DNA of 45,325 bases from a virus, in the IMG/VR virus record IMGVR_UViG_3300045988_038226, positions 1-45,325 of that record; one strand, written 5' to 3'. Made by a program: the position numbers and the translations under genes. Under the pieces are notes generated by a model. That model saw only the letters and a list, made by a program, of their open reading frames with translations, was not told where the DNA came from and ran no database searches. Shown piece after piece: positions 5,790 through 31,763 of this stretch. Positions within the stretch are counted from its first letter, which is position 1. Each line of letters starts with the position of its first letter.

Positions 5790-7479
5790 AATCGTTAAAT
5801 TTATTTGTTATTACTTCTATTTTCTTGGCGAATGGTATTTGCGTTCCAAACTCCAAAATGTTTGTATTTTCCCGTTCAAATCTGCGTACAAAGTTAGCAA
5901 AGTTAAGTTTTATACGCAATTCGTTCTCGGTAATTAAGTTGCGCCCGTATAAATCCAATACCTCGGTACGGGTCAAATGGCGGTACGGCTCCAATTCTGC
6001 CAATATTAACATACGTTGCAATTGGGTTGGATTGTTCCGGTACTCGGTTTCGATAAGTTGGTTTTGCAATGCGTCCAATTCCGCCTCGCTTGCGCCGCTA
6101 TCCCTTGCGGTTTTGTATCGGTTCCGCAACTCGGTTGCGTCGTACAAATAAAACTCGGTTCCGTAATTGACTTTTGCAGAAACAAACATATTGCCATACC
6201 TCAAACGGCAAACCGTTTCATCGACGAACTGTTGTGCCGCCTCAAATCCTTTCTTTACCCTGTTTAATACCGTGCTTTGACTTTCAAACGCCGCTTCAAC
6301 CTGTTGTTCGTTGAACGCTTCCCGTTGGGTTATTTCCTCGTTTTGACCGACAACCGCCGTTATTATGTTTTCACGCAAACGGCTTTCTTCCTCAACGTTA
6401 TAATCCAAACTTTGACGGTCGATTGTGGTTATTTGTACCGGGTTACGTAAATCCGGTTGTTTGTCCCCGTCCGGTATGGGTATTTCTACGAACGACCCCG
6501 CCCCGGTAATACGCTTATCCCCGCATTTGGGGCAACGCATCAATAACCCGGCTTGGTCTAATCTGTAATACCCTTGTTTGTCTTTCAAAAATCCGCCGTC
6601 GCAATAGTCGCCATTCTCGGCGTTACTGAAATCGCAACTTTGTTCGTACCCGGAATATATGGGATACGCCCCGTATAAATCCAAATGACGTTTCGATACA
6701 TGAAAGAACAAAAACCAATCCAACGCCTCCAATTCCTTTGTTAGCGGGGATTGTTTAACGTCCGGTTCTTTAAGGTTCAACGGTTCGTTCCAAAAGAACC
6801 GGGCGGGACAATAACCCAAATCGTGCGGGTTGTCAACCAACAATTCGCCAATATTGCCGCCGCCGTCCTCGGTAAATATCCGGTAACGTTCGTTATCAAT
6901 TACGGCAATACGTTTGTCGGGCTGTCTGAAAATAATCCAATCCATAACCCCGGTTGTCCTGTTTGCCTCAAAGGTTATGACGCTTTCAATAGGCAACCAA
7001 TAAAAATACGGGGTCGGGTAACGGTCGTTGTTGGGTTCGGTCGGCATATCCACAATTAAGACGCTGTTTATTTCCGTCTTGAAATACTCCCAACCTTTTG
7101 TACTCCAAATTTCCGGCTCTTTTAATACGTCCTGTCTGTAATACTCCCAATCGTCCCTTTGCTCTGTGTTCTGAAACTGATAATTGAACGCCGGGTTACG
7201 ACCGTCAAAAATACGGCTCAACTTATCAAAACAAATTCCCGTTACCTCATTCGTGCGAACGGGGTAACGGAAAAGAGTTTTGAATATTTTGAATTTGTCG
7301 TGCGGAATAAGATTGCCAACCCATGCCAAAAAATCGGTCGTCGGTTGACACATCAACGGGGTAACGTTGGTTTGGGCGTGAAACTTAATACGGTTTTGGT
7401 GTATAACCGCTTTATTTATCGTCGCCCGTTTCCGTGGTTCCGTTATCTGTTTTCTTATTTCCTTTACGTCTAATCCCAT
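5755..7479 (-). CDS. Portal protein (putative; alternative ATG at 7527)
   Basis: 574-590 aa ORF, the first large gene after the terL block. Size and position fit a portal. Contains a CPKCGDKR zinc-ribbon-like segment. No diagnostic motif. Confidence 0.5.
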   Translation of the reverse strand: MGLDVKEIRKQITEPRKRATINKAVIHQNRIKFHAQTNVTPLMCQPTTDFLAWVGNLIPHDKFKIFKTLFRYPVRTNEVTGICFDKLSRIFDGRNPAFNYQFQNTEQRDDWEYYRQDVLKEPEIWSTKGWEYFKTEINSVLIVDMPTEPNNDRYPTPYFYWLPIESVITFEANRTTGVMDWIIFRQPDKRIAVIDNERYRIFTEDGGGNIGELLVDNPHDLGYCPARFFWNEPLNLKEPDVKQSPLTKELEALDWFLFFHVSKRHLDLYGAYPIYSGYEQSCDFSNAENGDYCDGGFLKDKQGYYRLDQAGLLMRCPKCGDKRITGAGSFVEIPIPDGDKQPDLRNPVQITTIDRQSLDYNVEEESRLRENIITAVVGQNEEITQREAFNEQQVEAAFESQSTVLNRVKKGFEAAQQFVDETVCRLRYGNMFVSAKVNYGTEFYLYDATELRNRYKTARDSGASEAELDALQNQLIETEYRNNPTQLQRMLILAELEPYRHLTRTEVLDLYGRNLITENELRIKLNFANFVRRFERENTNILEFGTQIPFAKKIEVITNKFNDYASESRNRGES

Positions 7480-7630
7480 TATCGACAAATTCAAAAGTTG
7501 ATTTTTCGGGTAATTGCCAACCTCCATTGTTTCGCATACGCAAAAGCCTTTCGGCGTGGCTTATCTCATAATCGACGGTTACGTTTAAGGTCGGACACTC
7601 CAACGCAACCTTTGTAACCTTTGCGTTCAT
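7412..7630 (-). CDS. Small hypothetical protein
   Basis: 72-aa ORF, TAATG-coupled to the upstream gene. Its 3' 68-116 nt overlap the portal ORF in another frame. Confidence 0.35.
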   Translation of the reverse strand: MNAKVTKVALECPTLNVTVDYEISHAERLLRMRNNGGWQLPEKSTFEFVDNGIRRKGNKKTDNGTTETGDDK

Positions 7631-12974: not shown

Positions 12975-13232
12975 TTACTTAATTTCAAATATATGCCATA
13001 CATACGCACCTTGAAAAATAGTGTTTATGTATTTATATTCCCCAATGTATTTAATTGGATTGCCCGTGCCAATAATGGCAAACGTTCGTTCCTCGGTTGG
13101 GTTATCGGTTTCAACCATTGCCCAAATATAGGTATTTTCCCCCTGTAAATGTGCCGTTAAAATCTCGGCATCTTTCGGCATTTTTATTGTTTCCGACCAA
13201 TCGGATAGTTGATATTTATAAATTACTTTCAT
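12975..13232 (-). CDS. Hypothetical protein
   Basis: 85-aa ORF with an AGAGCGATGAAA start context. Confidence 0.5.
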   Translation of the reverse strand: MKVIYKYQLSDWSETIKMPKDAEILTAHLQGENTYIWAMVETDNPTEERTFAIIGTGNPIKYIGEYKYINTIFQGAYVWHIFEIK

Positions 13233-14103: not shown

Positions 14104-14125
14104 CCGGGAAAACGCCCGGTCGTTT
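14104..14125 (-). promoter_or_regulatory. Family-1 stem-loop (AACGACCGGGCGTTTTCCCGGT) in the 5' leader of the lipoprotein gene
   Basis: CCGGG / CGTTTT loop / CCCGG, 26 nt downstream of the P4 -7 box. A second hairpin GGGGAAcaaTTCCCC lies at 14127-14141. Confidence 0.6.
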
Positions 14126-14185: not shown

Positions 14186-14536
14186 TTATCTTTTATTTTT
14201 GCGTTTTATCCAAATAAACCGGATACCCACGCCAATAAACAACAATTTCAATTCAACGTCAACGTAACGGTCGTAACCGTTGACCGCATCGACGGAAACG
14301 CCGGGAACGACAAACCAACTATTGTATTTCAGATATTCACGGGCAAACAGATAAAAACCGAACCGCCATATATGGAACCCAATTTGTACCATGTGGCGAC
14401 GTTCTTTGTGTTCTACTTCGTTGCAATAATAACATTTACCCGTCTTTATATCTTTTACGGTTCCGTGGCTATCAATAACGGTTCCCCGTATTTTTTCGCC
14501 TGTTACAATTACTTTGTACTTTTTTGCATCTTTCAT
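14186..14536 (-). CDS. Hypothetical protein, possibly membrane-associated
   Basis: 116-aa ORF with a hydrophobic and aromatic C-terminal half (IGFHIWRFGFYLF...LLFIGVGIRFIWI). Confidence 0.45.
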   Translation of the reverse strand: MKDAKKYKVIVTGEKIRGTVIDSHGTVKDIKTGKCYYCNEVEHKERRHMVQIGFHIWRFGFYLFAREYLKYNSWFVVPGVSVDAVNGYDRYVDVELKLLFIGVGIRFIWIKRKNKR

Positions 14537-15036
14537 TTTTTTGCCTCCTTTGTCATTTCGTAACTCTCTTTATCCATAACCATTGCCACGGGGTACGGCA
14601 ATATGCAATCTTTGGTATAAACCAAATTGTAAATCCCCAATTGCCCCTTAACGGGAAATTCGATAACCCGGCGGGGGTTCCGCATCAACCACCCGTACCC
14701 CTTTGTTATCGCCTTGCGCTTTTCCGGGGGTATTCGGGTTTGCTCCCAATCATACGGGGTAAAATTGGCGACGGGCTTAATATCGTATAATTCGACCAAC
14801 CCCAACGTAACGCCGTTTTCATATCCGGGCAAATCCGGGTTTTTGGACGAACAAATTAAAAGGTCGCCCCGGTACGTTGTGTTTTTGCTTCGTACTTCAA
14901 TCGACTTTTCGGCGTAAATAATCCCGTTGTCCTCAAACGCCGCCGTTACCAACTGTGTTGCATACGGATTTTTTACGGTTAACGCCCGCCAACGGTCGTG
15001 TTGGGCGGGGTTATAATCTTTACTATTAAACTGCAT
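14533..15036 (-). CDS. ASCH (PUA-like fold) domain protein
   Basis: 167 aa from the ATG at 15036. ALTVKNPYATQLV...KSIEVRSKNTTYRGDLLICSS resembles the ASCH pattern LSIxQPWAxxI..K.IE.R...T.YRG.LLIH. Confidence 0.55.
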   Translation of the reverse strand: MQFNSKDYNPAQHDRWRALTVKNPYATQLVTAAFEDNGIIYAEKSIEVRSKNTTYRGDLLICSSKNPDLPGYENGVTLGLVELYDIKPVANFTPYDWEQTRIPPEKRKAITKGYGWLMRNPRRVIEFPVKGQLGIYNLVYTKDCILPYPVAMVMDKESYEMTKEAKK

Positions 15037-15877
15037 TTTCGTTCCTGTTTTCGTTAAACAAATCCCAATTTGCCGGGACGCAATGGACGGGCAACAATTC
15101 CCGTTCAATCCCGGACGCCTTTACAAAACTATCTTTCCAATATATCCGGGGCGTACTCTTTGGGTGCGCCTCCCAATATTCCGTTACGGTTTGATAGAAC
15201 GCCAACGTATCCCGCTTGGTATATCGGCAACCGCTTTGTAATCCGATTTTGAAAAGGTCAACAAAGGGATACGACAACGCAATTACAGAATACGCCCGGT
15301 CAAACATTCCCGGCGGGATTGGTTCCACACTCGCAAAGGTACGGAACCCGTGGCGTTTCGCCCGTGCCAATGCGTTTATCCGCATTTTGTTTGGGCTTGC
15401 GTTTGGCTCCAATTCGTCGCACCCGGTCAACGTGGAACCAATGGCAATGCGGGATACGTCCCAACCCTCGGACGCCTCGGCAAAGTCAACAAAAAGGTTT
15501 ATACCCTCGGCGCATTTGCTCAATATCTTAACCGGGACGCCGTGCCGTTGGCATACGCCGACCGCTTGACGGGTCAACCTTTGCGTTTCCGGCAACAACG
15601 GGTCGGTCGTAAATGAAAAGAACAACCCGGTTTTCTGCAATTCGTCCTTATGCTTTAATAACTCGTTTTTGAATATATCCAACGCATACGGGTACTCTCT
15701 CAACGTTTTTTTCAACTCCGGGCGATTGCCTCCCAACACTTTTGCGCCACGACCTTTGCGCAAATAACAGTACGTACAACCGTTTGAACAACCAACGTAA
15801 AAATTGGCGGCGTTCTCGGCATATTCTCCGGCTTTACCCTTTGGGCTATAAATAACCCGTCCGTTTATCGCTCCCAT
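15026..15877 (-). CDS. Radical SAM protein, SplB/DNA-repair-photolyase-like (COG1533-type)
   Basis: 283 aa. FYVGCSNGCTYCY gives the CX3CX2C cluster motif (C30, C34, C37; nt 15767-15790) in the GCxxGCxYCY context of SplB-like enzymes. Confidence 0.65.
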   Translation of the reverse strand: MGAINGRVIYSPKGKAGEYAENAANFYVGCSNGCTYCYLRKGRGAKVLGGNRPELKKTLREYPYALDIFKNELLKHKDELQKTGLFFSFTTDPLLPETQRLTRQAVGVCQRHGVPVKILSKCAEGINLFVDFAEASEGWDVSRIAIGSTLTGCDELEPNASPNKMRINALARAKRHGFRTFASVEPIPPGMFDRAYSVIALSYPFVDLFKIGLQSGCRYTKRDTLAFYQTVTEYWEAHPKSTPRIYWKDSFVKASGIERELLPVHCVPANWDLFNENRNENAV

Positions 15878-17313: not shown

Positions 17314-18015
17314 TTACATATTGTCCGTATCGTCGTCGCCTGTGGGTTCGTTGTCGTCGCCCTCGTTTGCCGGGTCGCCAACCTCCGGGAACAATCCGGG
17401 GTCGCCCGGTGCGTTATCCAATCCCGGTGCGGCTTCCCCGTCGGCTCCGAACAACTCCAATTGCGCCTTTTTACCCTTGAAAAGAAAGGCGTAAACCTCG
17501 TTTTCAATATCCCCTATAATTTCCTCCAATTCTTCCTCAAAACCGAACGTTTCGGTATTGAATTTCAGACGGGGCGAATTTATCGCCGTCTTTTGGTTAT
17601 TGGATACCGTGAACAATCCCGTAAGAACGCAACCAACGTTATCATCTTGACCGGAAAGGGACACGCCCCGAACCTCAATGTTTTTCAACATTTCATCCGC
17701 AAAATCACGGGCGGCGTCTTTTTGCTTTTGGTTGGCTTTCATATCCGGCGTTTCCATAAGGGACAAAAACGACGTTATGTTGAAAATACGCCCCATAATT
17801 GGGCGCAACCTGTCAAAGCAATTGCGCAAATCCGGGTGTATATCCTTTGCGCTTTCGACGTGATATTTGTTTGTGTAACTCTCATTACCGACGGTTTCGG
17901 TAACTTCATAATGGACGTCCAACCCGCCGTCCTTTAACGTCTTGACTTTCGACAATGCAAACGCCTTTTCGGTCGGTATCAACATTACGTTTGCGGGCTT
18001 TTCTTTTTCGCTCAT
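17314..18015 (-). CDS. Hypothetical protein with a strongly acidic C-terminal tail (possible gp2.5-like ssDNA-binding or annealing protein)
   Basis: 233 aa with the tail PANEGDDNEPTGDDDTDNM. Size and tail are reminiscent of T7 gp2.5-type proteins. No motif proof. Confidence 0.3.
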   Translation of the reverse strand: MSEKEKPANVMLIPTEKAFALSKVKTLKDGGLDVHYEVTETVGNESYTNKYHVESAKDIHPDLRNCFDRLRPIMGRIFNITSFLSLMETPDMKANQKQKDAARDFADEMLKNIEVRGVSLSGQDDNVGCVLTGLFTVSNNQKTAINSPRLKFNTETFGFEEELEEIIGDIENEVYAFLFKGKKAQLELFGADGEAAPGLDNAPGDPGLFPEVGDPANEGDDNEPTGDDDTDNM

Positions 18016-18035
18016 ATCTGTATAATTATTTGTTG

Positions 18036-18051
18036 CCGGGAACCCGCCCGG
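18036..18051 (-). promoter_or_regulatory. Family-1 stem-loop variant (CCGGGCGGGTTCCCGG + CAACAAATAATT)
   Basis: Intercistronic. It shares the 17-nt flank aattatttgttgccggg with the copy at 31731-31746. Confidence 0.55.
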
Positions 18052-18059
18052 CTCGGTTT

Positions 18060-18947
18060 TTATAAATCATTTTCAACGTATCGTTTTAACTCGGCTTGGA
18101 ACAATTCCCGTTCCTCGTTTTCCTGCGTAATCAATTCGTCGTACAAATCTTGGTCGAATATCTCGTTAACCGCATCGTTCAACATGGAAATCAATTTTTC
18201 CGGTTTTACGGCGTCTAACTCAACCTGTCCCAATCCGTCCCAATTTGCCGTCCGGCTGTCTGTTTCCTTTGCCGGGGCGGGCGGCAATTTCCATTCGATA
18301 ACCTGTTGTTCCATTAAGGCAATACGGCGTATTTCCACATCATAAACGCCGAACTTTTGCAAGTTTTCCCCAATCGACCGGGGTATGTCCTCGCCGGACG
18401 GGTCGTAATCGCCGAAATATAATATAATCGGCTTTTTACCCTCGCTTTGGGCGTCCCGTAAACGCTCGGACAATTCATATAAGAACGTTAACGACGGATA
18501 ACCTTTGCACGCTCCAACCGCAACGTCCCATTTGGCACACGGTTTCGCAAAAACGCCCTCCAACGCTTTTTTCTCAATAAGAATTTCCGGGTAATACGGT
18601 TGGTTTTCCCAACGGTTTTTGCCATACGAACGCATCCATAATCCGACCTGTCGTTTGGCTTCGTCCTGTTTGTCCTCCAATACGGTTTCCGTGGCTTTTG
18701 TCGTTCCACACATTGCCCTATCTCGGTCGCTGAACGCTTCAAAATCAACCCGACCGTCCCACCGGGCGACCTCCATTGCGGCGACAACACGTTTGTAATG
18801 CTGTAACGTGTTTGTCATTCCCCGGCTTACTAACTGATAATGCAACGCACGTATCGTCAATATACCGTTTTCGTATTGGCTCAACACGTCAATTGAATTT
18901 TCAATTATCCAATCCCGTGTAAATTCGTCTTTTGTTCGCTTTGCCAT
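18060..18947 (-). CDS. Topoisomerase VI-A/Spo11-like protein (winged-helix 5Y-CAP + Toprim; 'Topo mini-A'-type)
   Basis: 295 aa. Candidate catalytic Tyr in TIRALHYQL (Y37), Toprim Glu in EILIEKKALEG (E125) and the DxDPxG motif FGDYDPSGEDI (D180/D182). No B-subunit gene is present. Confidence 0.55.
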   Translation of the reverse strand: MAKRTKDEFTRDWIIENSIDVLSQYENGILTIRALHYQLVSRGMTNTLQHYKRVVAAMEVARWDGRVDFEAFSDRDRAMCGTTKATETVLEDKQDEAKRQVGLWMRSYGKNRWENQPYYPEILIEKKALEGVFAKPCAKWDVAVGACKGYPSLTFLYELSERLRDAQSEGKKPIILYFGDYDPSGEDIPRSIGENLQKFGVYDVEIRRIALMEQQVIEWKLPPAPAKETDSRTANWDGLGQVELDAVKPEKLISMLNDAVNEIFDQDLYDELITQENEERELFQAELKRYVENDL

Positions 18948-18951
18948 AATC

Positions 18952-19770
18952 TTAAAATTCGCTTTCGTCCAACAAATCCTTTGTCGTTTTATTCCGGGCG
19001 ACCGCCGGGCGTTGAGGCTCCGGGATTGGCTCCGGTTCCTGTTTCGGGTTCCCGGTTCCGATTGGTTCCGTTACGGGGTTCGGGTCGTTAAACTCAATAC
19101 CCCCGTTTTGGGGCTTTTCCGGCTCAAATTTCGCTTTGAGTTGTTCCGCCGGGTATTCCTTTTGTTGCAACTCAATAATCCCTAATTCGACCAATTCCGG
19201 GACGCATCGGCGCAATGCCTTAACGTCCTGTAATGCGTCATGCGCCGGGAATGTTTCGCCGGGGAACAATTTTGCAAACAATTCTTCCAATTTGGGAAAT
19301 TTCCCCGGTCTGCCATTCTGATACAATGCGCCGACAAATTTAATTGTTTTCATCATTGTATCAATGCGTTTTCCTTTGTGCAATGCGTCCTCGCACCGGG
19401 CGTCGTAATATTCTTTGCCACAATAGCGCAAAACGTTTGCTTTTAACATCGACGTATCAAAATAAATGTTGTGCGCACATACAAGCGGGGCGGCGGCGGC
19501 ATCTGCCAAAAATTCGTCGATAACCTCGGCAAACGGTACGCCCTCGGCAATTGCCCGTTCGGTCGTTATACCATGTATGGCGGTTGTTTCCGGCGGTATC
19601 TCGTAATTATCCGGTTTGATAATAAAACAACGTTCTTTATCTCCAAACGCCCAACCCAATTGTACAACGTGCGGGAATTGGTTAAAATCCGCATCCCATT
19701 TCAAACCCTTTGCGGGTACTCCGGTTGTTTCGCAATCGAAAAAACAAATGTCTTTTAATTCAAATTTCAT
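18952..19770 (-). CDS. DnaQ/DEDDh-family 3'-5' exonuclease
   Basis: 272 aa with Exo I FFDCETTG, Exo II CAHNIYFDTSML and Exo III HDALQD. Pro-rich C-terminal tail ending LLDESEF. Confidence 0.8.
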   Translation of the reverse strand: MKFELKDICFFDCETTGVPAKGLKWDADFNQFPHVVQLGWAFGDKERCFIIKPDNYEIPPETTAIHGITTERAIAEGVPFAEVIDEFLADAAAAPLVCAHNIYFDTSMLKANVLRYCGKEYYDARCEDALHKGKRIDTMMKTIKFVGALYQNGRPGKFPKLEELFAKLFPGETFPAHDALQDVKALRRCVPELVELGIIELQQKEYPAEQLKAKFEPEKPQNGGIEFNDPNPVTEPIGTGNPKQEPEPIPEPQRPAVARNKTTKDLLDESEF

Positions 19771-19794: not shown

Positions 19795-19995
19795 TTACTC
19801 GTTTTCGTTGCGGAATTTATCCCGCTTTTTCTCTAACTCCAATACGTCCCGGTTTTCCTCGACGTACTGTTTTACGTCCTTACGGCAAAACGGTTGGTCG
19901 GCTAACCAAAGCAAATGCCAATACGGTACGTTTTCCATTGTTTGACCCTTAAATTTGCCTTGCGGCATTAGGTCGCTATCTGTCAAATTCGCCAT
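19795..19995 (-). CDS. DUF3820-like protein (ExoX C-terminal-domain-like)
   Basis: 66 aa. LMPQGKFKGQTMENVPYWHLLWL matches the MPFGKYKGxxLxxxPxxYLxWL signature of DUF3820. Confidence 0.55.
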   Translation of the reverse strand: MANLTDSDLMPQGKFKGQTMENVPYWHLLWLADQPFCRKDVKQYVEENRDVLELEKKRDKFRNENE

Positions 19996-20572: not shown

Positions 20573-21796
20573 TTATTGTTTATCGTTCCCGTCGCTGTTA
20601 TCTCTCTTTTTTTCATCGTCGATTAACTTTTGCATGGTAATATTAAACGCTGTCATTCCAACCGCCCGGATAAATTCCCGTTCGTTTGATGAATACCCGG
20701 TTGCCACTTTATCCAATATCGTTGCGAAAATAACAACGAATTTTCCCGGCTCCCAATCCCCGGCGTTGTGCATACGGTCGATAACGTGCGCTTTCAATCG
20801 TTGGTTATCCTTTGCGGCTTTTTTGCGGGCTGTTTCCCGGTCGTTCCAAAGGCTTGTTAATTGGGTTTTCACGTTGTCAAAGAACAACGGCATTTTCAGA
20901 ACGTCCGCAATACTCAAATCCGCAACCGGGGTTGGAACGGCGGCGGCGATTGCTTCGTTGACTTTCTTTTGGGCTTTGGCTTCCTTTTTCGTTGCCTCGG
21001 ATAATTTGGTTGTTGCCTCGGCAATATCGTTTATCCCGGCGGCGGTTCCTTTGTTGACCCCGTAACCGAACAACGCAAAATCCCCTTTGGTCGGGTCGTC
21101 CGGGAATATCTCGGCGAAACGGTCGGTTATTTCAATGGCGGTGCGTAAATCCGGCGTCCGGCGTGTCGTCAATCCCAACCGGATTGCCTGTTTATGTACG
21201 TGCGTATCCAACGGCATAATCAAATTACGGGGTTCGCATACCGTCCACAATCCAAAGTCAACCGGGGAACTCTTACGACACATCCAACGCAAAAACAGAC
21301 ACAACCGTTTGCAAGCCGTGGACGTCGAACCGTCCGGGATACCATTAACGGAACCAAACAAAGCCAATAGGGTTTGCAATGGTTTTTCCCCGTTCTGTGT
21401 GTTATTTATTGCCGCTTCCATATTTCCGTAAACCGTGTACACATCGCAAAGGCGTTCGCAAAGGTCGTGGAAATCCCCAAACGTAAACGTTCGGTAAAAA
21501 CTTTCGGGGCTGTCTTTATACTGTTTCCATTCCGGGGCGGCTCCGGGTTCAACATTATTGCCGACAATGTAATGATACGGTTCGCCCTTGAAAATTTCCC
21601 GGTCGATATAATCCGCCTTTTTGATTATCTGTTTGCGGTTGCCCCATGCAATCCACGCCGTAACAAAAGCGGATATTTCAATATTTACCCGACTATCGTA
21701 ACGGCGTGGAATTTGTACCGGGTCGTTTTTTACGAACTCGGCGGTTTCGTATTGTTCCGCCCAACGCTTCAAATTTTCGTTCAATGTATATGCCAT
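20573..21796 (-). CDS. DUF2400/TIGR02757-family domain fused to a ~150-aa C-terminal extension
   Basis: 407 aa. ACKRLCLFLRWMCRKSSPVDFGLW...LIMPLDTHVHKQAIRLGL...DPTKGDFALFGYG matches my recollection of the TIGR02757 signature. Residues ~255-407 have no recognised counterpart. Confidence 0.65.
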   Translation of the reverse strand: MAYTLNENLKRWAEQYETAEFVKNDPVQIPRRYDSRVNIEISAFVTAWIAWGNRKQIIKKADYIDREIFKGEPYHYIVGNNVEPGAAPEWKQYKDSPESFYRTFTFGDFHDLCERLCDVYTVYGNMEAAINNTQNGEKPLQTLLALFGSVNGIPDGSTSTACKRLCLFLRWMCRKSSPVDFGLWTVCEPRNLIMPLDTHVHKQAIRLGLTTRRTPDLRTAIEITDRFAEIFPDDPTKGDFALFGYGVNKGTAAGINDIAEATTKLSEATKKEAKAQKKVNEAIAAAVPTPVADLSIADVLKMPLFFDNVKTQLTSLWNDRETARKKAAKDNQRLKAHVIDRMHNAGDWEPGKFVVIFATILDKVATGYSSNEREFIRAVGMTAFNITMQKLIDDEKKRDNSDGNDKQ

Positions 21797-21840: not shown

Positions 21841-23286
21841 TTATTCGTTTTCGCTGTATTCCTCAATAATTAAATCGTCCTGTCCTCGTTTGACTTCCTC
21901 AATAAAGCCTTGATAACCCTCTTTACGGGCTAATTCGATAAGGGATTGCAGACGTTTTGCGCCCAAACTTTCGCCCCTCGCAATGCGGAATACTTTAACG
22001 GTCGGATTGCTTGCAATGATAAGTTTTGCGGCAACCTCCATAATTTGACTATCCGATACTTTCCCGGCAACGAACGGCACGCCGTTTAATTCTAACCCGT
22101 CGTCCGTGAATGTCAACCCGGTAATCGGCAATTCCGATTTTGCAATAAGGGTTTCCCGTTCTTTCAGTAAATCCGACAACTTTTTTTCGTGGGTTTGGGC
22201 GACCTTTTCGGCGGCGTCCTTTTGCTTTTTCTTTGCCACATAGTCCACAACCAACGCATTTATTTTGTTGTGTTCCTCGGCTTGTTTGAGGCGTTCCGCT
22301 GTATCCAATTTTTCCGGGTTGTTTTCCTCGTATTTCGCCAACCATGCGGCGGCGTTATTCTTACGGGTTTCGTAATCGGCTTTGTCGGTTTCAATTTGCG
22401 CCAACGTTTCGTCGTATTTGTCGGCGGCGGCTTTTGCATCCGCTTTGCTTTGTTTTTTTGCGGCGTCCAAAGCCTTTTTTGCCTCGGCAACAATCCGGTC
22501 GTATTCCGCTTGCGCATCTGTGGCGGATTTGTCGGCGGCGGCAATTTCGGCTTTCTTTGTTTCCTCGGCGGCTTTGATACGACCGGGGATTGCCTCCAAT
22601 TGTTCCGTCCGGGTTTGCAAAGCGGTACGCACGGTTTTTGCTTTTTCAATCAACCGGGCGTTCTCGTTTTGTTCCTCCATTAAGTCGGCAATGTCGATTT
22701 TCTCGGCATACGTTTTGGCGTCGCCCGGCTTCAACTGTTTTTCGGCGGCGGCGCAAATGGTCGTGTACGTCTTAACCTCGGCGTTTGCCTCTTTACGTTT
22801 GTCCTTAACGGTCGTAACCTCGGCGTCAATCTCGGCGATACGCTTTTGCACATTTTCCGGCAATAACGCCCGCACATACTCAACTTGCTTGCGGCGACCC
22901 TCGGCGGTTTCCGACCAACGGGAAAATTCCACGGCGTCAAAATCGGTATATCCGAAAACCTTTTGCAACATACTTACGTTATCCGACCGCATCCCGGTTG
23001 TTTTCTGTTTGATTGATAACGTACCCCGTGGGTTGGCTTTGGTAAATCGCAATTCAACGTCGTATTCCTCGCCGTCGTCGCCTACAACCATTTTTGCAAA
23101 CCCTTTTTCCTCGCCATTGCGCAACACGGCGTCCCGGTTCCCGGTCAATAACGCCCCGATTGCCTTTAATAGCGTTGATTTTCCCAACTCATTGTCCCCG
23201 GTAATGAAATATACATTACCCTCAAAATCTGCGTTGAACTCCTTAATTACTTGGAAATTCGACAATTCTAACTTTTTTATAATCAT
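21841..23286 (-). CDS. Rad50/SbcC/RecF-like SMC-type ATPase with a long coiled coil
   Basis: 481 aa. N-terminal LELSNFQ...ITGDNELGKSTLL (Walker A), ~250-aa Ala/Lys/Glu coiled coil, and a C-terminal VSDSQ...KVFRIARGESLG in place of the canonical signature and Walker B. Confidence 0.6.
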   Translation of the reverse strand: MIIKKLELSNFQVIKEFNADFEGNVYFITGDNELGKSTLLKAIGALLTGNRDAVLRNGEEKGFAKMVVGDDGEEYDVELRFTKANPRGTLSIKQKTTGMRSDNVSMLQKVFGYTDFDAVEFSRWSETAEGRRKQVEYVRALLPENVQKRIAEIDAEVTTVKDKRKEANAEVKTYTTICAAAEKQLKPGDAKTYAEKIDIADLMEEQNENARLIEKAKTVRTALQTRTEQLEAIPGRIKAAEETKKAEIAAADKSATDAQAEYDRIVAEAKKALDAAKKQSKADAKAAADKYDETLAQIETDKADYETRKNNAAAWLAKYEENNPEKLDTAERLKQAEEHNKINALVVDYVAKKKQKDAAEKVAQTHEKKLSDLLKERETLIAKSELPITGLTFTDDGLELNGVPFVAGKVSDSQIMEVAAKLIIASNPTVKVFRIARGESLGAKRLQSLIELARKEGYQGFIEEVKRGQDDLIIEEYSENE

Positions 23287-23545: not shown

Positions 23546-23567
23546 CCGGGAAAACGCCCGGTCGTTG
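23546..23567 (-). promoter_or_regulatory. Family-1 stem-loop (AACGACCGGGCGTTTTCCCGGT) in the P3 leader
   Basis: Same 22-nt sequence as 14104-14125. Lies 14 nt downstream of the P3 -7 box. Confidence 0.6.
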
Positions 23568-24063: not shown

Positions 24064-24606
24064 TTAAAATAAACGATTGTGCATTGGGGCGGGTAAATTT
24101 TCCAAAACCCAACGGGGGTTGTTATGCAAAATGTATCGTCCAAAGTGTAAAATCATAAGCGCATCGGCGTTCCACAATGTCGCCTTAACATCCGGGTAAT
24201 AATCGGCGGCGGCTCGTTGGTAACGCTTTTTTCGTTGTGGCTTTTCCTCTCCCTTAACCCGCAATTTCAATTCGTTTTGCCATTTTTGGGGGTGTACCAA
24301 AACAAACGGTACGTCGCACATGGCAATTATTGTTTTCAGTTTCTCAAACTCCGATAACAGTTTTTGCACTCGAAAGGCTTTGCCGGGGTTGTCGTTCACG
24401 TCGTCCGGGCGCAATTGTACCTTTTCGACGAATACCAACGGGCGGCAAATACTTTTCATGTATTCAAACCATTCTTTCAACTCCATAAGGTCGCCCGGCA
24501 TTTTGATAACCTCGGTTTTATGGTTCGGACGCCAAACGGCAATCCCCCCGGTTTTTCCGGGGTCAATGCCAATAATACAATCAATCGTTATTTTGTTCAT
24601 TTCCAA
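24064..24606 (-). CDS. ruvC: RuvC-like Holliday junction resolvase
   Basis: 180 aa with IIGIDPGKTGGIAVW (first catalytic Asp), FVEKV (Glu) and a C-terminal NADALMILHFG (Asp pair context). Confidence 0.7.
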   Translation of the reverse strand: MEMNKITIDCIIGIDPGKTGGIAVWRPNHKTEVIKMPGDLMELKEWFEYMKSICRPLVFVEKVQLRPDDVNDNPGKAFRVQKLLSEFEKLKTIIAMCDVPFVLVHPQKWQNELKLRVKGEEKPQRKKRYQRAAADYYPDVKATLWNADALMILHFGRYILHNNPRWVLENLPAPMHNRLF

Positions 24607-25532: not shown

Positions 25533-26393
25533 CTAATAATCGTTATTAAGAAATTCCATTGCGCCCGCAACGTCTAATTTCTTTTGCGGGGCTTGGTATT
25601 CCGGTTTCAAATGCAACTTTTTCTTTTCCACATCGCCACGAATGAAATTGCGTACCGTGGCAATCCAACCCGTCCGGGTTCTCTTTACGCCCTGTTTGGT
25701 TTCCGACCAATCGGCGACCGTATGGAAATAGTAAACCAAATCGACCCGTTCAAATTCCGGCGTCGCAAATAACTTTTCAAACTCGGAATAATCGTTGTTT
25801 CCGTCGGGCGCAAACTTAACCAATTTGTAAACCTCGGAATTGCGAAATATGGACGTTCTTTTTTTATCCTTATCGTCAACCCCTTTTTCATCCGGGAACA
25901 AATCCCCGACAACCGGGTTGGCGGGGTTACTCTGATTAGTATTTGGTTTATTTATGTCCTTTGTTGGATTAGTATTTATTAGTGTCGGGTTTTCCGTATC
26001 CGGTTTATCCGTGTCGGGTTTAACCGTATCGGGATTTTCCGGTTGTGGTGCATCCGTAACCGGATTTTCCGTATATGGCTGGACGAAAACGGGTTGGTCG
26101 CAAATTTCATACGCATAACCCGCAATTGTTCCGTCCGGGTTCCGGTTCTGTGTTTTGGAACAATACCCGAACGTTTCCAACTCTTTAATCCCACTATACA
26201 GACTATCCCGCCCGTCGGTTGCCCGGTTCGTCAAATCTCGCATATTCAAAACCCAATCGTCCGGCAACATGGCGACGTATGCAATAATTCCTTTTGCTTT
26301 CCAACTCAAACGGGTATCTTTCAAAAACTCATTCGATAAAACGGTAAAATCCCGGTCGTATTTACGACGGGTAATTGTGTTATTGTTCGCCAT
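25533..26393 (-). CDS. Replication initiator/replisome-organizer-like protein (N-terminal winged helix)
   Basis: 286 aa. FTVLSNEFLKDTRLSWKAKGIIAYVAML...GRDSLYSGIKELETFGY fits the phage O/DnaD-type wHTH pattern. The central linker PENPDTVKPDTDKPDTENP is encoded by iteron-like DNA repeats. Confidence 0.55.
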   Translation of the reverse strand: MANNNTITRRKYDRDFTVLSNEFLKDTRLSWKAKGIIAYVAMLPDDWVLNMRDLTNRATDGRDSLYSGIKELETFGYCSKTQNRNPDGTIAGYAYEICDQPVFVQPYTENPVTDAPQPENPDTVKPDTDKPDTENPTLINTNPTKDINKPNTNQSNPANPVVGDLFPDEKGVDDKDKKRTSIFRNSEVYKLVKFAPDGNNDYSEFEKLFATPEFERVDLVYYFHTVADWSETKQGVKRTRTGWIATVRNFIRGDVEKKKLHLKPEYQAPQKKLDVAGAMEFLNNDY

Positions 26394-27108
26394 TGTCGCC
26401 GCCCTCCAATTGTTTAACGGGTTCCCATGCCTTACGTACTTTCAATACGTTGTCGGCACTCTCATTGGGAACCAACGAAACAACCGGAAAACGGGAACGG
26501 TCGCCCGGTTTTTGGGTTGTCGCAAATTGTACATTCAAATCAAAAATTACTCCCTTACAAAAACCACGTTCCGCCAACATACCGTCGAACGTTTCCCGGA
26601 TTTGCGGGATTGTGGACGCCGTACCCTTTGTTGCGAACTGCCATACCCCGGCAACGCCACGTACCAACGGTACAATAAAACTCAACGTCAACGTAATTTC
26701 CCAACCGTCGTGTCCGTCCTGTTTGCTCTTTTTGTTTGGGTAACGTTTCGTAATGGATTGCATCAAATTTGGGTACTTTTCCGTTGTCAACGTTTCGTAC
26801 TTTTTGCCGTCCCATACTTGGAACGTTTCGCCGTCGCCCGCCGCAATCAATCGTCCGTCATCGTCCCGGTATTCGTACCGTTCGTTGCATACTTTCGCCG
26901 GGTCGTCGTCCGGGAAAACGATTTGTATTGTTTGGGGCTTTTCGCCGTATGCCTGTGTAAATAACCCGGCATACTTTCCCGTTGGTATAAAATAATCAAC
27001 GCTTTGCGGGTATCCGTTAGCGTTTTTCATTCCGATTTTTATTTGTCCGACACGGGGTAAAATCAAACGGGATTTTTCCGCCTCCGGTCGTCTTATTCGT
27101 CCTTTCAT
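26380..27108 (-). CDS. Hypothetical protein in the recombination module (possible annealing protein, or phiC31 gp3-like family)
   Basis: 242 aa directly downstream of the exonuclease. The N-terminal LPRVGQIKIGMKNANGYPQSVDYF pattern is only weakly recalled from gp3-like phage proteins. Confidence 0.3.
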   Translation of the reverse strand: MKGRIRRPEAEKSRLILPRVGQIKIGMKNANGYPQSVDYFIPTGKYAGLFTQAYGEKPQTIQIVFPDDDPAKVCNERYEYRDDDGRLIAAGDGETFQVWDGKKYETLTTEKYPNLMQSITKRYPNKKSKQDGHDGWEITLTLSFIVPLVRGVAGVWQFATKGTASTIPQIRETFDGMLAERGFCKGVIFDLNVQFATTQKPGDRSRFPVVSLVPNESADNVLKVRKAWEPVKQLEGGDNGEQ

Positions 27109-27113
27109 GCTCT

Positions 27114-28472
27114 TTATATTTCGGGGTCGTCGTTCAACAATTTTTTCTTATTCTCATTTTTGGGCTTTTTAGGCGTGTTTGCGGGCTTTTGTTCCTTTTC
27201 CGGTGCAACCGTTCGTTTCGCCGCCTTTCGTCCCGTGGCGGGCTTGTTTTCCGCCTCCTTTGCCTTTTTCCCGGCACGCTTTACAATCGTTGTTTTCTTT
27301 ATCCCGGTTTCCTCGGTTGGCTCCGGTGCGTTCGCATCTGCTTTGACCTTATCGGCGGCGTCCGTGGTTTCGTCCGGGGTCGCCTCTTTAGGGGCTTTGG
27401 TTTTAATCAATTCCGACAACGACAACGATATTACGTTTTGGGTTAAATCCGGGGCGTCGTCCAAAAGAACCATACCATTAACCGCCGTAAACGTGTTGTC
27501 CCGCTTTTCGTCCTCAATGGCGGCAATCTCTAACAGATAGGGGATTTTGCGTATATTGGGGCTTTCGGTTTGTTCTTTCAAGTTGTACGACGGGCGTTTG
27601 CGCCAATCTTTCGGGCTGAAATTGAAAATACGGGTAACGGGGAATTGCTCAAAATTGACGTTCCACATATCCCGGTACATTCCTAATTGTATTTCGCTTT
27701 CCTCGTAAAAACCTTTTCGCCCGCTTTTGAAATCGACGATTGCGTTAATACGGTCGTCGCTCCCAATCTTTGCCCGCATCGTACACGGGCAATCAATCAT
27801 TCCGGCATACTTGTAATAAGGGTGTACCAATGCAATTTCCACGGCTAACGGTCTAACATCATAATCCAATACAAATTGCGCAAATGCCAATACGTCCTTT
27901 TTTAAGTCGTCGGCGTAATATATGAAATCGTCCGGCAATCGGTAAACCTCAATATATTCTTTTAGTTTGCCTTTCAGTCCGTCCAAATCATACGCCCGGT
28001 TAATCAATAATTCCTCAAATGCGGCGTGCATAAACGTTCCATACGCCGCCCGTTCGCCTTTGTATCGCTCGGCTTCCTCAATGCCTTTGTTCGCAATCCA
28101 ATTGATTAAGTGCGGGGCTTTGGGTAATGTTTGGGACAACACGGTTGTAACAGACGGGAAAAACTCCGGGTTCCCGGCATCGTCGTAACGGTAATAATAC
28201 CTGTGTCCCTTACTGTTTAACTGCCAAACCTTATACGGCGGTTCAATCAACGTTTTTTCGTCGAAAAACATTGCCGTCATTTCCTCAACCGTCATGCCCG
28301 GTATTATCTCAAACACTCCGGTTGGTTGTTCCGGTTGAACCTCAACGAACGGGGGAATAATCGTTTGTTGTTCCTCGTTAATATCGGGGAACATATCCGG
28401 GGCAACATTGCCAACGGTTCCCGCAACCTCTTTTACCGGGTCGCCCGGTTTATCGCTCTTTTTCGCTCTCAT
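27114..28472 (-). CDS. PD-(D/E)XK (RecB/Cas4/lambda-Exo-like) exonuclease with a basic low-complexity tail
   Basis: 452 aa with GTFMHAAFEELL, GMIDCP...AIVDFKSGRKG (D...D/ExK) and EIQLGMY (QxxxY). Lys/Pro/Ala-rich C-terminal ~100 aa. Confidence 0.6.
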   Translation of the reverse strand: MRAKKSDKPGDPVKEVAGTVGNVAPDMFPDINEEQQTIIPPFVEVQPEQPTGVFEIIPGMTVEEMTAMFFDEKTLIEPPYKVWQLNSKGHRYYYRYDDAGNPEFFPSVTTVLSQTLPKAPHLINWIANKGIEEAERYKGERAAYGTFMHAAFEELLINRAYDLDGLKGKLKEYIEVYRLPDDFIYYADDLKKDVLAFAQFVLDYDVRPLAVEIALVHPYYKYAGMIDCPCTMRAKIGSDDRINAIVDFKSGRKGFYEESEIQLGMYRDMWNVNFEQFPVTRIFNFSPKDWRKRPSYNLKEQTESPNIRKIPYLLEIAAIEDEKRDNTFTAVNGMVLLDDAPDLTQNVISLSLSELIKTKAPKEATPDETTDAADKVKADANAPEPTEETGIKKTTIVKRAGKKAKEAENKPATGRKAAKRTVAPEKEQKPANTPKKPKNENKKKLLNDDPEI

Positions 28473-31741: not shown

Positions 31742-31763
31742 CCGGGAAAACGCCCGGTCGTTG
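31742..31763 (-). promoter_or_regulatory. Family-1 stem-loop (AACGACCGGGCGTTTTCCCGGC), intercistronic
   Basis: Lies directly after the stop of 31765-32016 and is followed by CAACAAATAATT, as at 18036. Confidence 0.6.

Follow-up and report, generated by a model that had tools for sequence, protein, structure and literature searches.

Can an A subunit of a type IIB topoisomerase that a phage encodes without any B subunit break DNA on its own, and what would it do for the phage? This question is raised by an open reading frame (ORF) in the IMG/VR virus record IMGVR_UViG_3300045988_038226, of which positions 1 to 45,325 were analyzed (this whole stretch of 45,325 nucleotides (nt) is called the window below). 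The whole window, ~45 kb, is the complete genome of a siphophage, and the ORF (18060..18947, minus strand, ATG start) encodes a protein of 295 amino acids (aa). A preliminary description of the sequence had presented it as a stand-alone TopoVI-A/Spo11-like "mini-A" protein. Among the branches of the Top6A/Spo11 superfamily, Mini-A alone has neither a known partner nor a known activity. It bears on the origin of type IIB topoisomerases and Spo11, and on whether a lone A subunit can be a competent, self-regulated DNA breaker.

Identity and conserved residues of the Mini-A protein

Mini-A proteins have been defined as stand-alone Top6A homologues of ~300 aa from phages and proviruses, with neither the N-terminal B-binding region nor a B subunit (PMC7671362). 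Their signature consists of R-x-x-(Y/F)-Y, a glutamate plus DxDxxG, and a C-terminal xWELDAL box that separates Mini-A from Topo VI and Topo VIII (PMC7671362). The window gene is a genuine member of this described family of viral stand-alone type IIB topoisomerase A subunits. Its product carries the tyrosine motif, the Toprim residues and the C-terminal (T2BI) box, and it is homologous to a reference member of the family, that of Pseudomonas phage NP1 (35.9% identity, 86% coverage, E = 9e-36), a phage that serves as a Mini-A example in Takahashi et al. (2020, NAR Genom Bioinform; PMC7671362). The gene resides in a viral genome without a B subunit. The N-terminus is truncated, as expected for the family: the protein has 295 aa, its winged helix begins at about residue 11 in the AlphaFold2 model, and its profile alignment with the structure 1d3y (M. 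jannaschii Topo VI A) begins at the TLREAYY region.

The resemblance goes well beyond chance: the PHROGs search (hmmscan) assigned residues 28-288 to phrog_6247, "DNA topoisomerase" (E = 5.6e-63). In single-sequence searches with the protein, no Pfam domain, nothing in PADLOC or NCBIfam, and no Protein Data Bank (PDB) match by phmmer were found; only PHROGs and family profiles were informative. The closest protein (98% identity; WAX05450.1 of Alistipes phage AS73P1) is labeled "hypothetical protein", and genes of Bacteroides phages BKO1-3 and C1_85S2P with 85% identity are labeled "DNA topoisomerase"; Chi-like Salmonella phages were also among the matches. The family comprises 1,945 homologues in a protein set clustered at 90%, and 6,510 clusters at 50% identity (E <= 0.001). 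Publications of 2019/2020 had described the family with its motifs, its occurrence in viruses and the absence of a B subunit. Since the family is published, PHROGs and several GenBank records use the label "DNA topoisomerase", and a deposited phage genome contains a 98% identical protein, the finding is already known, and the window adds no new kind of protein.

Conservation was assessed in an alignment of the window protein with 89 full-length representatives (n = 90; 28-60% identity, mostly 30-36%), to which the counts below refer. The parts of the protein are located as follows.

18723..18917, minus strand: winged-helix / 5Y-CAP-like domain, residues 11-75 (AlphaFold2 helices 11-22, 32-40 and 48-63)
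18849-18851 and 18837-18839, minus strand: R33 and the candidate catalytic Y37 of the motif TIRALHY (both 90/90)
18243..18602, minus strand: Toprim domain, residues 116-235 (alternating strands and helices in the models)
18573-18575, 18408-18410, 18402-18404 and 18393-18395, minus strand: Toprim residues E125, D180, D182 and G185 (90/90)
18201..18236, minus strand: C-terminal T2BI box GLGQVELDAVKP, residues 238-249, with the predicted clasp glutamate E243 at 18219-18221
18066..18203, minus strand: C-terminal helical hairpin, residues 249-294 (helices 249-263 and 266-294, pLDDT >90)

The motifs TIRALHYQL (residues 31-39, with Y37), EILIEKK (121-127, with E125) and GDYDPSGEDI (179-188, with D180, D182 and G185) had been singled out in the preliminary description, and their codon coordinates were verified. 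Conservation bears this choice out: the proposed winged-helix tyrosine is present in all 90 homologues, and the Toprim glutamate and the residues of the DxDPxG motif are equally invariant. In total, 12 positions are invariant (R33, Y37, Y51, D74, E125, K126, G149, S152, D180, D182, G185, and E243), and the family consensus reads LTLRQLYY ... EVWxEK ... GDHDPSG ... WELDAL. In the box Q-V-E-L-D-A-V (241-247), E243 is found in 90/90 members, L244 in 83/90, D245 in 88/90 and A246 in 88/90. Val242 of the window protein is a common variant (W in 48, V in 35 and Y in 6 of 90).

In the cryo-electron microscopy study of M. mazei Topo VI (2026), Y106 is the nucleophile, an R102-E342 salt bridge ("electrostatic clasp") restrains this tyrosine, the E342Q variant is hyper-cleaving, and E202, D254 and D256 are the metal ligands (PMC13040014). 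Mini-A possesses the same elements in the same order (R33, Y37, E125, D180/D182, and E243), all of them in 90/90 members. The arginine at position -4 from Y37 parallels R102/Y106 of M. mazei; in M. jannaschii Top6A, R99 and Y103 are the named residues (PMC7671362). We infer from the sequence that E243 is the positional counterpart of E342 of M. mazei Top6A. This residue-level match to the newly defined clasp, with R33 and E243 invariant, predicts that an E243Q variant of Mini-A would be hyper-cleaving.

The preliminary description had named a different Toprim family, for example a primase-like or OLD-like one, as an assignment that would speak against its own, and had suggested a comparison with JetD-type Toprim families. 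Both profile and fold comparisons placed Topo VI A nearest instead. When the family profile was compared with all PDB sequences, only M. jannaschii Topo VI A (1d3y_A) was matched, over the DxD region (E = 0.006); in a weak second stretch, TlRqlYY of the profile was aligned on TLREAYY (R99/Y103) of the archaeal protein. The AlphaFold2 model of Mini-A (pLDDT 94.3, pTM 0.81) had a sole significant Foldseek match in the PDB, 9o0g_A (M. mazei Topo VI A with DNA; E = 3.9e-4, probability 1.00, global TM only 0.30). For the Toprim half modeled alone (pLDDT 96.7), Topo VI A chains took all five top places (probability 1.00, TM 0.44-0.49). Across both searches the top matches were 9o0g_A, 1d3y and 9o7o_A (probability 1.00, E from 1.8e-4 to 1.4e-3). 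The C-terminal helical hairpin has no counterpart in the Topo VI A structures of the fold comparison, which partly accounts for the modest TM-scores. JetD, MksG, OLD/GajA, primase and type IA/IIA Toprim structures were all missing from the top 50 of the Toprim-half search, and no JetD or MksG structure was among the top 50 in the whole-protein search. T7 primase appeared in the whole-protein search at E = 0.07-0.18 only and was absent from the top 50 of the Toprim-half search. A BFVD fold search returned a 152-aa fragment of a close relative, the rest being noise.

Pfam and PADLOC gave a more mixed picture of the family. The window protein itself has no match to TP6A_N or TOP6A-Spo11_Toprim, and none to DUF2399, JetD_C or the PADLOC JetD models. 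Among the 90 members, weak Pfam matches were obtained to DUF2399 (25 members, best 2e-6), DUF7281 (11), TP6A_N (9, best 0.024), TOP6A-Spo11_Toprim (5, best 2e-4) and JetD_C (4), and PADLOC JetD models matched up to 26/90, also weakly (best about 4e-6). Among the families listed for the window protein and the 90 members, Pfam and PADLOC gave no match to a primase- or OLD-type Toprim. Among Toprim proteins, Mini-A thus belongs to the Top6A/Spo11/JetD branch, and its sequence shows affinity to the JetD Toprim as well. It is separated from JetD and MksG by its invariant CAP tyrosine, since the CAP-equivalent domain of MksG/JetD proteins lacks a catalytic tyrosine (PMC10123090). Together with the PHROGs assignment, the NP1 homology and the signature, these comparisons uphold the original assignment as a TopoVI-A/Spo11-like protein.

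Topo VI A and Spo11 are the nearest relatives of solved structure, and Mini-A resembles them in its winged helix plus Toprim fold and in the order of its residues (tyrosine with arginine at -4, Toprim glutamate, DxD, putative clasp glutamate). It differs from them in being ~100 residues shorter, without the N-terminal B-binding region and without a Top6B/TOP6BL partner, and in having the extra C-terminal hairpin; it is viral and accessory, whereas Top6A and Spo11 are cellular and essential. The JetD/MksG proteins of Wadjet/MksBEFG plasmid defense have in common with it a Toprim domain from the Top6A branch whose metal site is conserved and, in this phage clade, an SMC-like ATPase encoded nearby. 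JetD/MksG are, however, hydrolytic and lack the CAP tyrosine, while Mini-A retains R-x-x-x-Y and has no DUF3322 N-domain and no JetABC operon. Topo VIII, a plasmid-borne type IIB enzyme with fused B and A parts, is likewise confined to mobile elements and carries a related C-terminal box (RVELNAM), but it has a fused or split Bergerat ATPase and transducer, of which Mini-A has none, and the box of the window protein is VELDAV (ELDA), not ELNA. With the published Mini-A proteins the window protein shares the ~300-aa length, the truncated 5Y-CAP with R-x-x-x-Y, the Toprim E + DxDxxG, and the C-terminal ELDA box; it departs from them by His36 (6/90) and Val242 (35/90), minor variants inside the family range.

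Mini-A as an optional cassette in a group of Bacteroidales phages

In this group of Bacteroidales phages, Mini-A is an optional cassette of one intergenic slot, where it alternates with an empty allele or with a DNA methyltransferase gene. This is new information in comparison with the published Mini-A. The slot and its surroundings in the window are as follows.

18016-18951: variable slot (sibling occupants at L090 13512-14564, L117 322-1209 and L148 4002-4952)
18948..18951, minus strand: upstream cassette boundary, a 4-nt gap of sequence GAATTTTAAGATTATGGCAAA
18016..18059, minus strand: downstream cassette boundary, a 44-nt spacer from Mini-A to the phrog_9513 gene, with a hairpin at 18035-18052
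17314..18015, minus strand: phrog_9513 gene (1.3e-26), anchor for the slot analysis; a neighbor, not a functional partner
18952..19770, minus strand: DEDDh (DnaQ/RNase T-like) 3'-5' exonuclease (Pfam RNase_T 3e-10; phrog_192 7.5e-27); a neighbor, not a functional partner
19795-19995: DUF3820/QSregVF_b-like ORF of 66 aa (E = 1.7e-4; 21.8 bits, just below the Pfam cut-off of 22)

The survey was anchored on the downstream phrog_9513 gene and included 80 IMG/VR loci chosen without reference to Mini-A; with the cultured phages PD491P1 and PD691P3 the number of loci was 82, and both flanking genes were present in 80/82. The slot was empty in 48 of the 80 loci (gap mostly 41-52 nt), contained Mini-A in 24 and something else in eight. 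No Mini-A was found elsewhere within 5 kb in the empty loci. The slot of PD491P1 holds a 350-aa DNA methyltransferase (phrog_116, 2e-67), and that of PD691P3 only a 59-aa ORF. The alternative occupants with an intact ORF (L117 and L148) display LFDGxxxG, GGSPCQDLS and ENV, which we take to be motifs of C5-cytosine methyltransferases. No intact ORF was present in the slots of L098, L104 and L160; L115 and L116 are two further "other" slots, and the methyltransferase call covers the intact ORFs. Frameshifts may reflect assembly errors.

In the siblings without Mini-A the exonuclease stop codon runs directly into the spacer, and the junction between the exonuclease and the phrog_9513 gene reads ...GAATTTTAAGTTATAAAACCG... 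in the empty allele. The spacer is kept in Mini-A, empty and methyltransferase alleles alike, with about nine positions differing between the Mini-A and the empty allele of otherwise near-identical genomes. The phrog_9513 gene was detected in 16/16 loci with and 39/40 loci without Mini-A.

The hairpin of the spacer belongs to a repeated element. A 16-nt GC-rich hairpin, CCGGGAA(AA/CC)CGCCCGG, occurs four times in the window, compared with 0.09 copies expected by chance (plus-strand coordinates 14104-14119, 18036-18051, 23546-23561 and 31742-31757). The copies carry CCGGGAANNCGCCCGG and have similar flanks (TTGTTGCCGGG...CCCGGTCGTT); at least those at 18036 and 31742 are intergenic, the former being the one at the downstream Mini-A boundary. 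Judged by its sequence, the element reads as a terminator-like hairpin on the plus strand, though the genes are on the minus strand.

Changes of slot state could be followed in closely related loci. Two empty loci, L106 and L113, retain the first 3-5 codons of Mini-A fused to its last 20-28, with different breakpoints, and are independent deletion scars. On a neighbor-joining tree of the flanking genes, which was built on recombining sequences, Mini-A status requires at least eight changes and the four slot states 11. L165 and L166 carry Mini-A within an otherwise empty clade. Between L165 and the empty locus L147 there is an 882-nt indel, with 97-100% identity per 100-nt bin for ~800 nt on each side; the differences are clustered in the final ~15 nt of the exonuclease gene and in the spacer of ~45 nt that follows Mini-A. 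This restriction of the differences to the junctions indicates that the alleles are long-standing, not products of recent deletion, and that homologous recombination swaps them, short flanking tracts being co-converted. A simple deletion was considered as the origin of the L147-type allele and was rejected, because the sequence adjacent to the junction differs while the outer flanks are near-identical.

When present, Mini-A is a functional gene under purifying selection. Pairwise dN/dS was 0.10-0.17 across the more diverged pairs and lower in closer ones, and 29 of 33 distinct copies gave a single full-length match (a measure of match extent). Accessory status is not universal in the family: in Nipunavirus-type records with ligase and Sak4 flanks, Mini-A was retained in 19/19, and this fixation rules it out. 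Near-isogenic alleles are held by cultured gut Bacteroidales phages, with Mini-A in AS73P1, BKO1-3 and PDS1 and without it in PD491P1 and PD691P3. The existence of near-isogenic Mini-A, empty and methyltransferase alleles makes the function of Mini-A experimentally approachable, as a ready-made genetic system.

A partner for Mini-A was sought in the window and around its homologues. At profile level, Pfam and PHROGs scans of about 35 ORFs in the window detected no GHKL/HATPase/Bergerat B subunit and no transducer, in agreement with the earlier statement that no ATPase B subunit is encoded; the accompanying remark that partnerless A homologues are of uncharacterized activity is consistent with the literature (PMC7671362). 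An SMC/Rad50/RecF-like ABC ATPase that the preliminary description had not mentioned lies 2.9 kb upstream of Mini-A (21841-23286; 481 aa with a long central coiled coil; matches to AAA_15/AAA_23/SMC_N and phrog_1499, best PADLOC match AriA at 7e-12). It was tested as a partner because Toprim nucleases often pair with such ATPases. No Mre11/SbcD-type nuclease partner of this ATPase was detected in the genome, and no kleisin or KITE genes were found. The ATPase is present in 15/16 sibling loci with and 40/40 without Mini-A. Among phage records, 32 had the ATPase and 84 had Mini-A, with both in only five genomes. The ATPase was rejected on these counts as an obligate surrogate "Mini-B" by analogy to JetC-JetD or AriA-AriB. 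No nearby gene co-varied with Mini-A in the comparison of 16 Mini-A and 40 Mini-A-less sibling loci. De novo clustering of neighbors within 4 kb in 61 Mini-A lineages revealed no family in more than 6/61, the top cluster being an artefact of antisense ORFs.

The exonuclease and DUF3820 genes next to Mini-A had been taken as a hint of a DNA-end or break-processing function. The tight block is real, with only 4 nt from the stop codon of the exonuclease gene to the start codon of Mini-A and a DUF3820 match just under the Pfam threshold; the functional hint lacks support. The block is a case of lineage-specific synteny: these neighbors were found only beside Mini-A of at least ~73% identity and in a few rearranged cases, and the block is absent at all loci with 33-39% identical Mini-A and at most of those with 56-69%. 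The exonuclease is present in sibling loci both with and without Mini-A, the slot next to it being empty in 48/80 and otherwise occupied in eight. Since it is missing beside distant Mini-A and persists without Mini-A in siblings, the block was rejected as a functional partner. The NCBIfam "DNA polymerase III epsilon" models PRK06309/PRK06310 are matched by the DUF3820-like ORF in their C-terminal region (about 185-220 of 232), and for this reason the ORF belongs with the exonuclease, not with Mini-A; by these matches, the 66-aa ORF and the DEDDh exonuclease have the appearance of a bacterial DnaQ-like fusion protein split in two.

In annotated phages, Mini-A is always located in early replication/recombination modules: between DNA ligase and the Sak4 annealase in PaMx25, in Fizzles beside a Cas4 exonuclease and a recombinase, and in other phages near ThyX, MazG or a polymerase. 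In the DxD region of the PaMx25 gene (L003, ~7403-7570), a tract of ~165 nt has 78% nucleotide identity to Xylella/Xanthomonas phages Salvo, Bacata and Seregon; outside this tract the query segment is unmatched.

Possible function of Mini-A

We propose that Mini-A is a B-independent DNA breaker using tyrosine and Mg, with an accessory role in replication or recombination; to this account as a whole we give roughly even chances. By analogy with Topo VI and Spo11, Mini-A is very probably a B-independent tyrosine/Mg DNA-breaking enzyme, and the recombination and late-replication machinery of the phage itself plausibly draws on the breaks or nicks that it would make. The protein would act as a homodimer with two hybrid active sites, each made up of one subunit's tyrosine and the Toprim of the partner subunit, and would cut DNA by Mg-dependent transesterification with formation of a covalent link to the 5' phosphate. 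An R33-E243 salt bridge would restrain the tyrosine until DNA of suitable geometry is bound. The resulting ends may be passed to the phage PD-(D/E)XK exonuclease, Holliday-junction resolvase and single-stranded DNA-binding protein, to a conditional rather than essential advantage. Topo VI works by a two-gate mechanism, in which the B subunits, dimerized by ATP, prevent the complex from coming apart during the opening of the A-A DNA gate. With no ATPase gate, Mini-A could not pass a strand safely, so that a Spo11-like maker of breaks or nicks is likelier than a true topoisomerase. An A-type subunit can in principle cleave without a B partner, as one report describes covalent double-strand breaks made in vitro by mouse SPO11 alone (PMC11922746).

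Several points weigh against this account. Covalent cleavage, dimerization and the clasp are attributed to Mini-A by analogy, and the residue equivalences between Mini-A and Top6A come from motif order and a weak profile alignment, not from superposition. The fold similarity to Topo VI A is modest, both for the whole protein and for the Toprim half. For many members, the sequence match to JetD/DUF2399 models equals or exceeds that to Top6A models, and the mechanism may be hydrolytic. The window protein has a minority residue next to the candidate tyrosine (His36 in R33-A-L-H-Y37; the position is Y in 69, F in 15 and H in 6 of 90). The sibling loci are non-independent, many being from one metagenome, and with Mini-A fixed in Nipunavirus the term "accessory" does not generalize. 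What the protein does for the phage is guesswork, and counter-defense would be an equally good reading of the alternation with methyltransferases.

A true topoisomerase, in which the dimer cleaves and religates to relax supercoils or decatenate phage circles, either ATP-free or with a surrogate host or phage ATPase, appears unlikely. It would agree with the "DNA topoisomerase" label in PHROGs and many GenBank records, with the conservation of the full set of cleavage-religation residues and of the regulatory clasp residues, and with the SMC/Rad50-like ATPase upstream in this clade; pairing with another protein was left open by Takahashi et al. (PMC7671362). Yet no GHKL ATPase was found at profile level among the scanned ORFs, the stretch at the N-terminus of the 5Y-CAP that binds Top6B is missing (PMC7671362), and the SMC-like ATPase is independent of Mini-A. 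An A-only dimer that opened its DNA gate would release a double-strand break, and the dispensability of the gene argues against a core topological role here. Dispensability also bears on the idea of a replication initiator, a nickase that would cut at a specific site, become covalently linked to the 5' end like an HUH Rep protein, and start rolling-circle replication. Asgard skuldviruses encode Mini-A and no other replication protein, and an initiator role has been proposed for them (bioRxiv 10.1101/2021.07.29.453957). The tyrosine and metal chemistry would yield a 5'-linked protein and a free 3'-OH, and the Top6A E342Q mutant shows Mg-supported nicking (PMC13040014). This phage, however, possesses a DnaD-like replication initiator of its own (25533-26393; phrog_4707, 8e-27) and has siblings that replicate without Mini-A, which excludes an essential rolling-circle initiator here; moreover, no conserved DNA site was identified beside the Mini-A gene. 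We regard the initiator explanation as improbable, although an auxiliary nicking role in the switch to concatemer-producing replication, which overlaps with the B-independent DNA breaker proposed above, is possible.

The behavior of the slot brings up two further explanations. Mini-A could be a selfish, free-standing endonuclease of the homing type, of a new class with topoisomerase-like tyrosine/Toprim chemistry, which would break the empty exonuclease/phrog_9513 junction of co-infecting siblings and be copied in by recombinational repair. If true, this would explain the presence/absence polymorphism, the co-converted flanks, the scattered distribution and the lack of a partner. The polymorphism is gene-sized and lies at one precise intergenic site, its states are scattered on the flank tree (at least eight changes), and L165 and L166 carry Mini-A inside an empty clade with near-identical flanks and short co-converted junction tracts. 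The enzyme stands alone with its own DNA-binding domain and is predicted to cleave DNA, its homologues are patchy across unrelated phages and neighborhoods, homing endonucleases of the I-HmuI type have been annotated in the sibling PD491P1, and the window has an HNH gene two genes away. Nevertheless, homing is quite unlikely: the empty allele is in the majority (48/80), which is unexpected for an efficient homing element, the same slot takes methyltransferases and may be a general hotspot, the scars in L106 and L113 record loss, not gain, and Mini-A is fixed in the 19 Nipunavirus relatives. Family-wide conservation and a dN/dS of ~0.1 are unlike the degeneration cycle typical of homing genes, and repair would be hampered by a protein covalently attached to the cut end. 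The alternation with methyltransferases, classic anti-restriction cargo, and the accessory and polymorphic state of the gene are also what a counter-defense or takeover gene would display. In that case Mini-A could be a hydrolytic Toprim nuclease of the JetD/MksG type, directed against host DNA or a competing element, or a mimic of such a nuclease acting as a decoy against Wadjet-like defense. More members match DUF2399 (25/90) and PADLOC JetD (up to 26/90) than TP6A_N (9) or TOP6A-Spo11_Toprim (5), all of them weakly. We give this explanation little chance, because the window protein has no JetD or PADLOC match, Topo VI A heads both fold searches with no JetD/MksG structure in the top 50, and R-x-x-x-Y is present in 90/90 Mini-A but the CAP tyrosine is lacking in MksG/JetD (PMC10123090). 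The DUF3322 N-domain and JetABC genes are absent, and the sole SMC-like ATPase (21841-23286) is found in all 40 Mini-A-less loci and is missing from most Mini-A phages.

Other features of the phage genome

Pfam and PHROGs scans of the window identified genes for the terminase, portal, capsid, tape measure and endolysin and a replication/recombination set, with transcription nearly all on the minus strand. No integrase was detected among the scanned ORFs. The recombination module comprises a Gp3-like "recombination directionality factor-like" gene (26380-27108; PF18897, 4.6e-33), a 452-aa PD-(D/E)XK-type exonuclease (27114-28472; phrog_298), and a resolvase-like ORF (24064-24606), the counterpart of the BKO1-3 "Holliday junction resolvase".

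A second polymorphic gene of the module encodes a DUF2400/TIGR02757 protein (20573-21796; E = 6e-60) with a C-terminal extension of ~160 aa and an overlap of 44 nt with the downstream NinB-like ORF. Its sibling versions are ~400 or ~140 aa long, and BKO1-3 have a short ORF with a DNA methyltransferase nearby. A gene for a radical SAM protein (15026-15877; phrog_13321; Pfam 8.7e-6, under the gathering score) shares 83 nt with the ORF at 14533-15108 (phrog_3193) and occurs in nearly all sibling loci, irrespective of Mini-A. Several distant Mini-A phages (Queuovirinae) have QueE-type radical SAM genes; a link to 7-deazaguanine DNA modification was considered, and none was established.

ARAGORN found no tRNA in the window, whereas AS73P1 (L001), a close relative, has an annotated tRNA-Gln(ttg) at 13063-13136. 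The genomes are also mosaic: Mini-A is 98% identical to that of AS73P1 and 85% to those of BKO1-3, whereas the SMC-like ATPase is 76% identical to its AS73P1 counterpart and 95% to those of BKO1-3.

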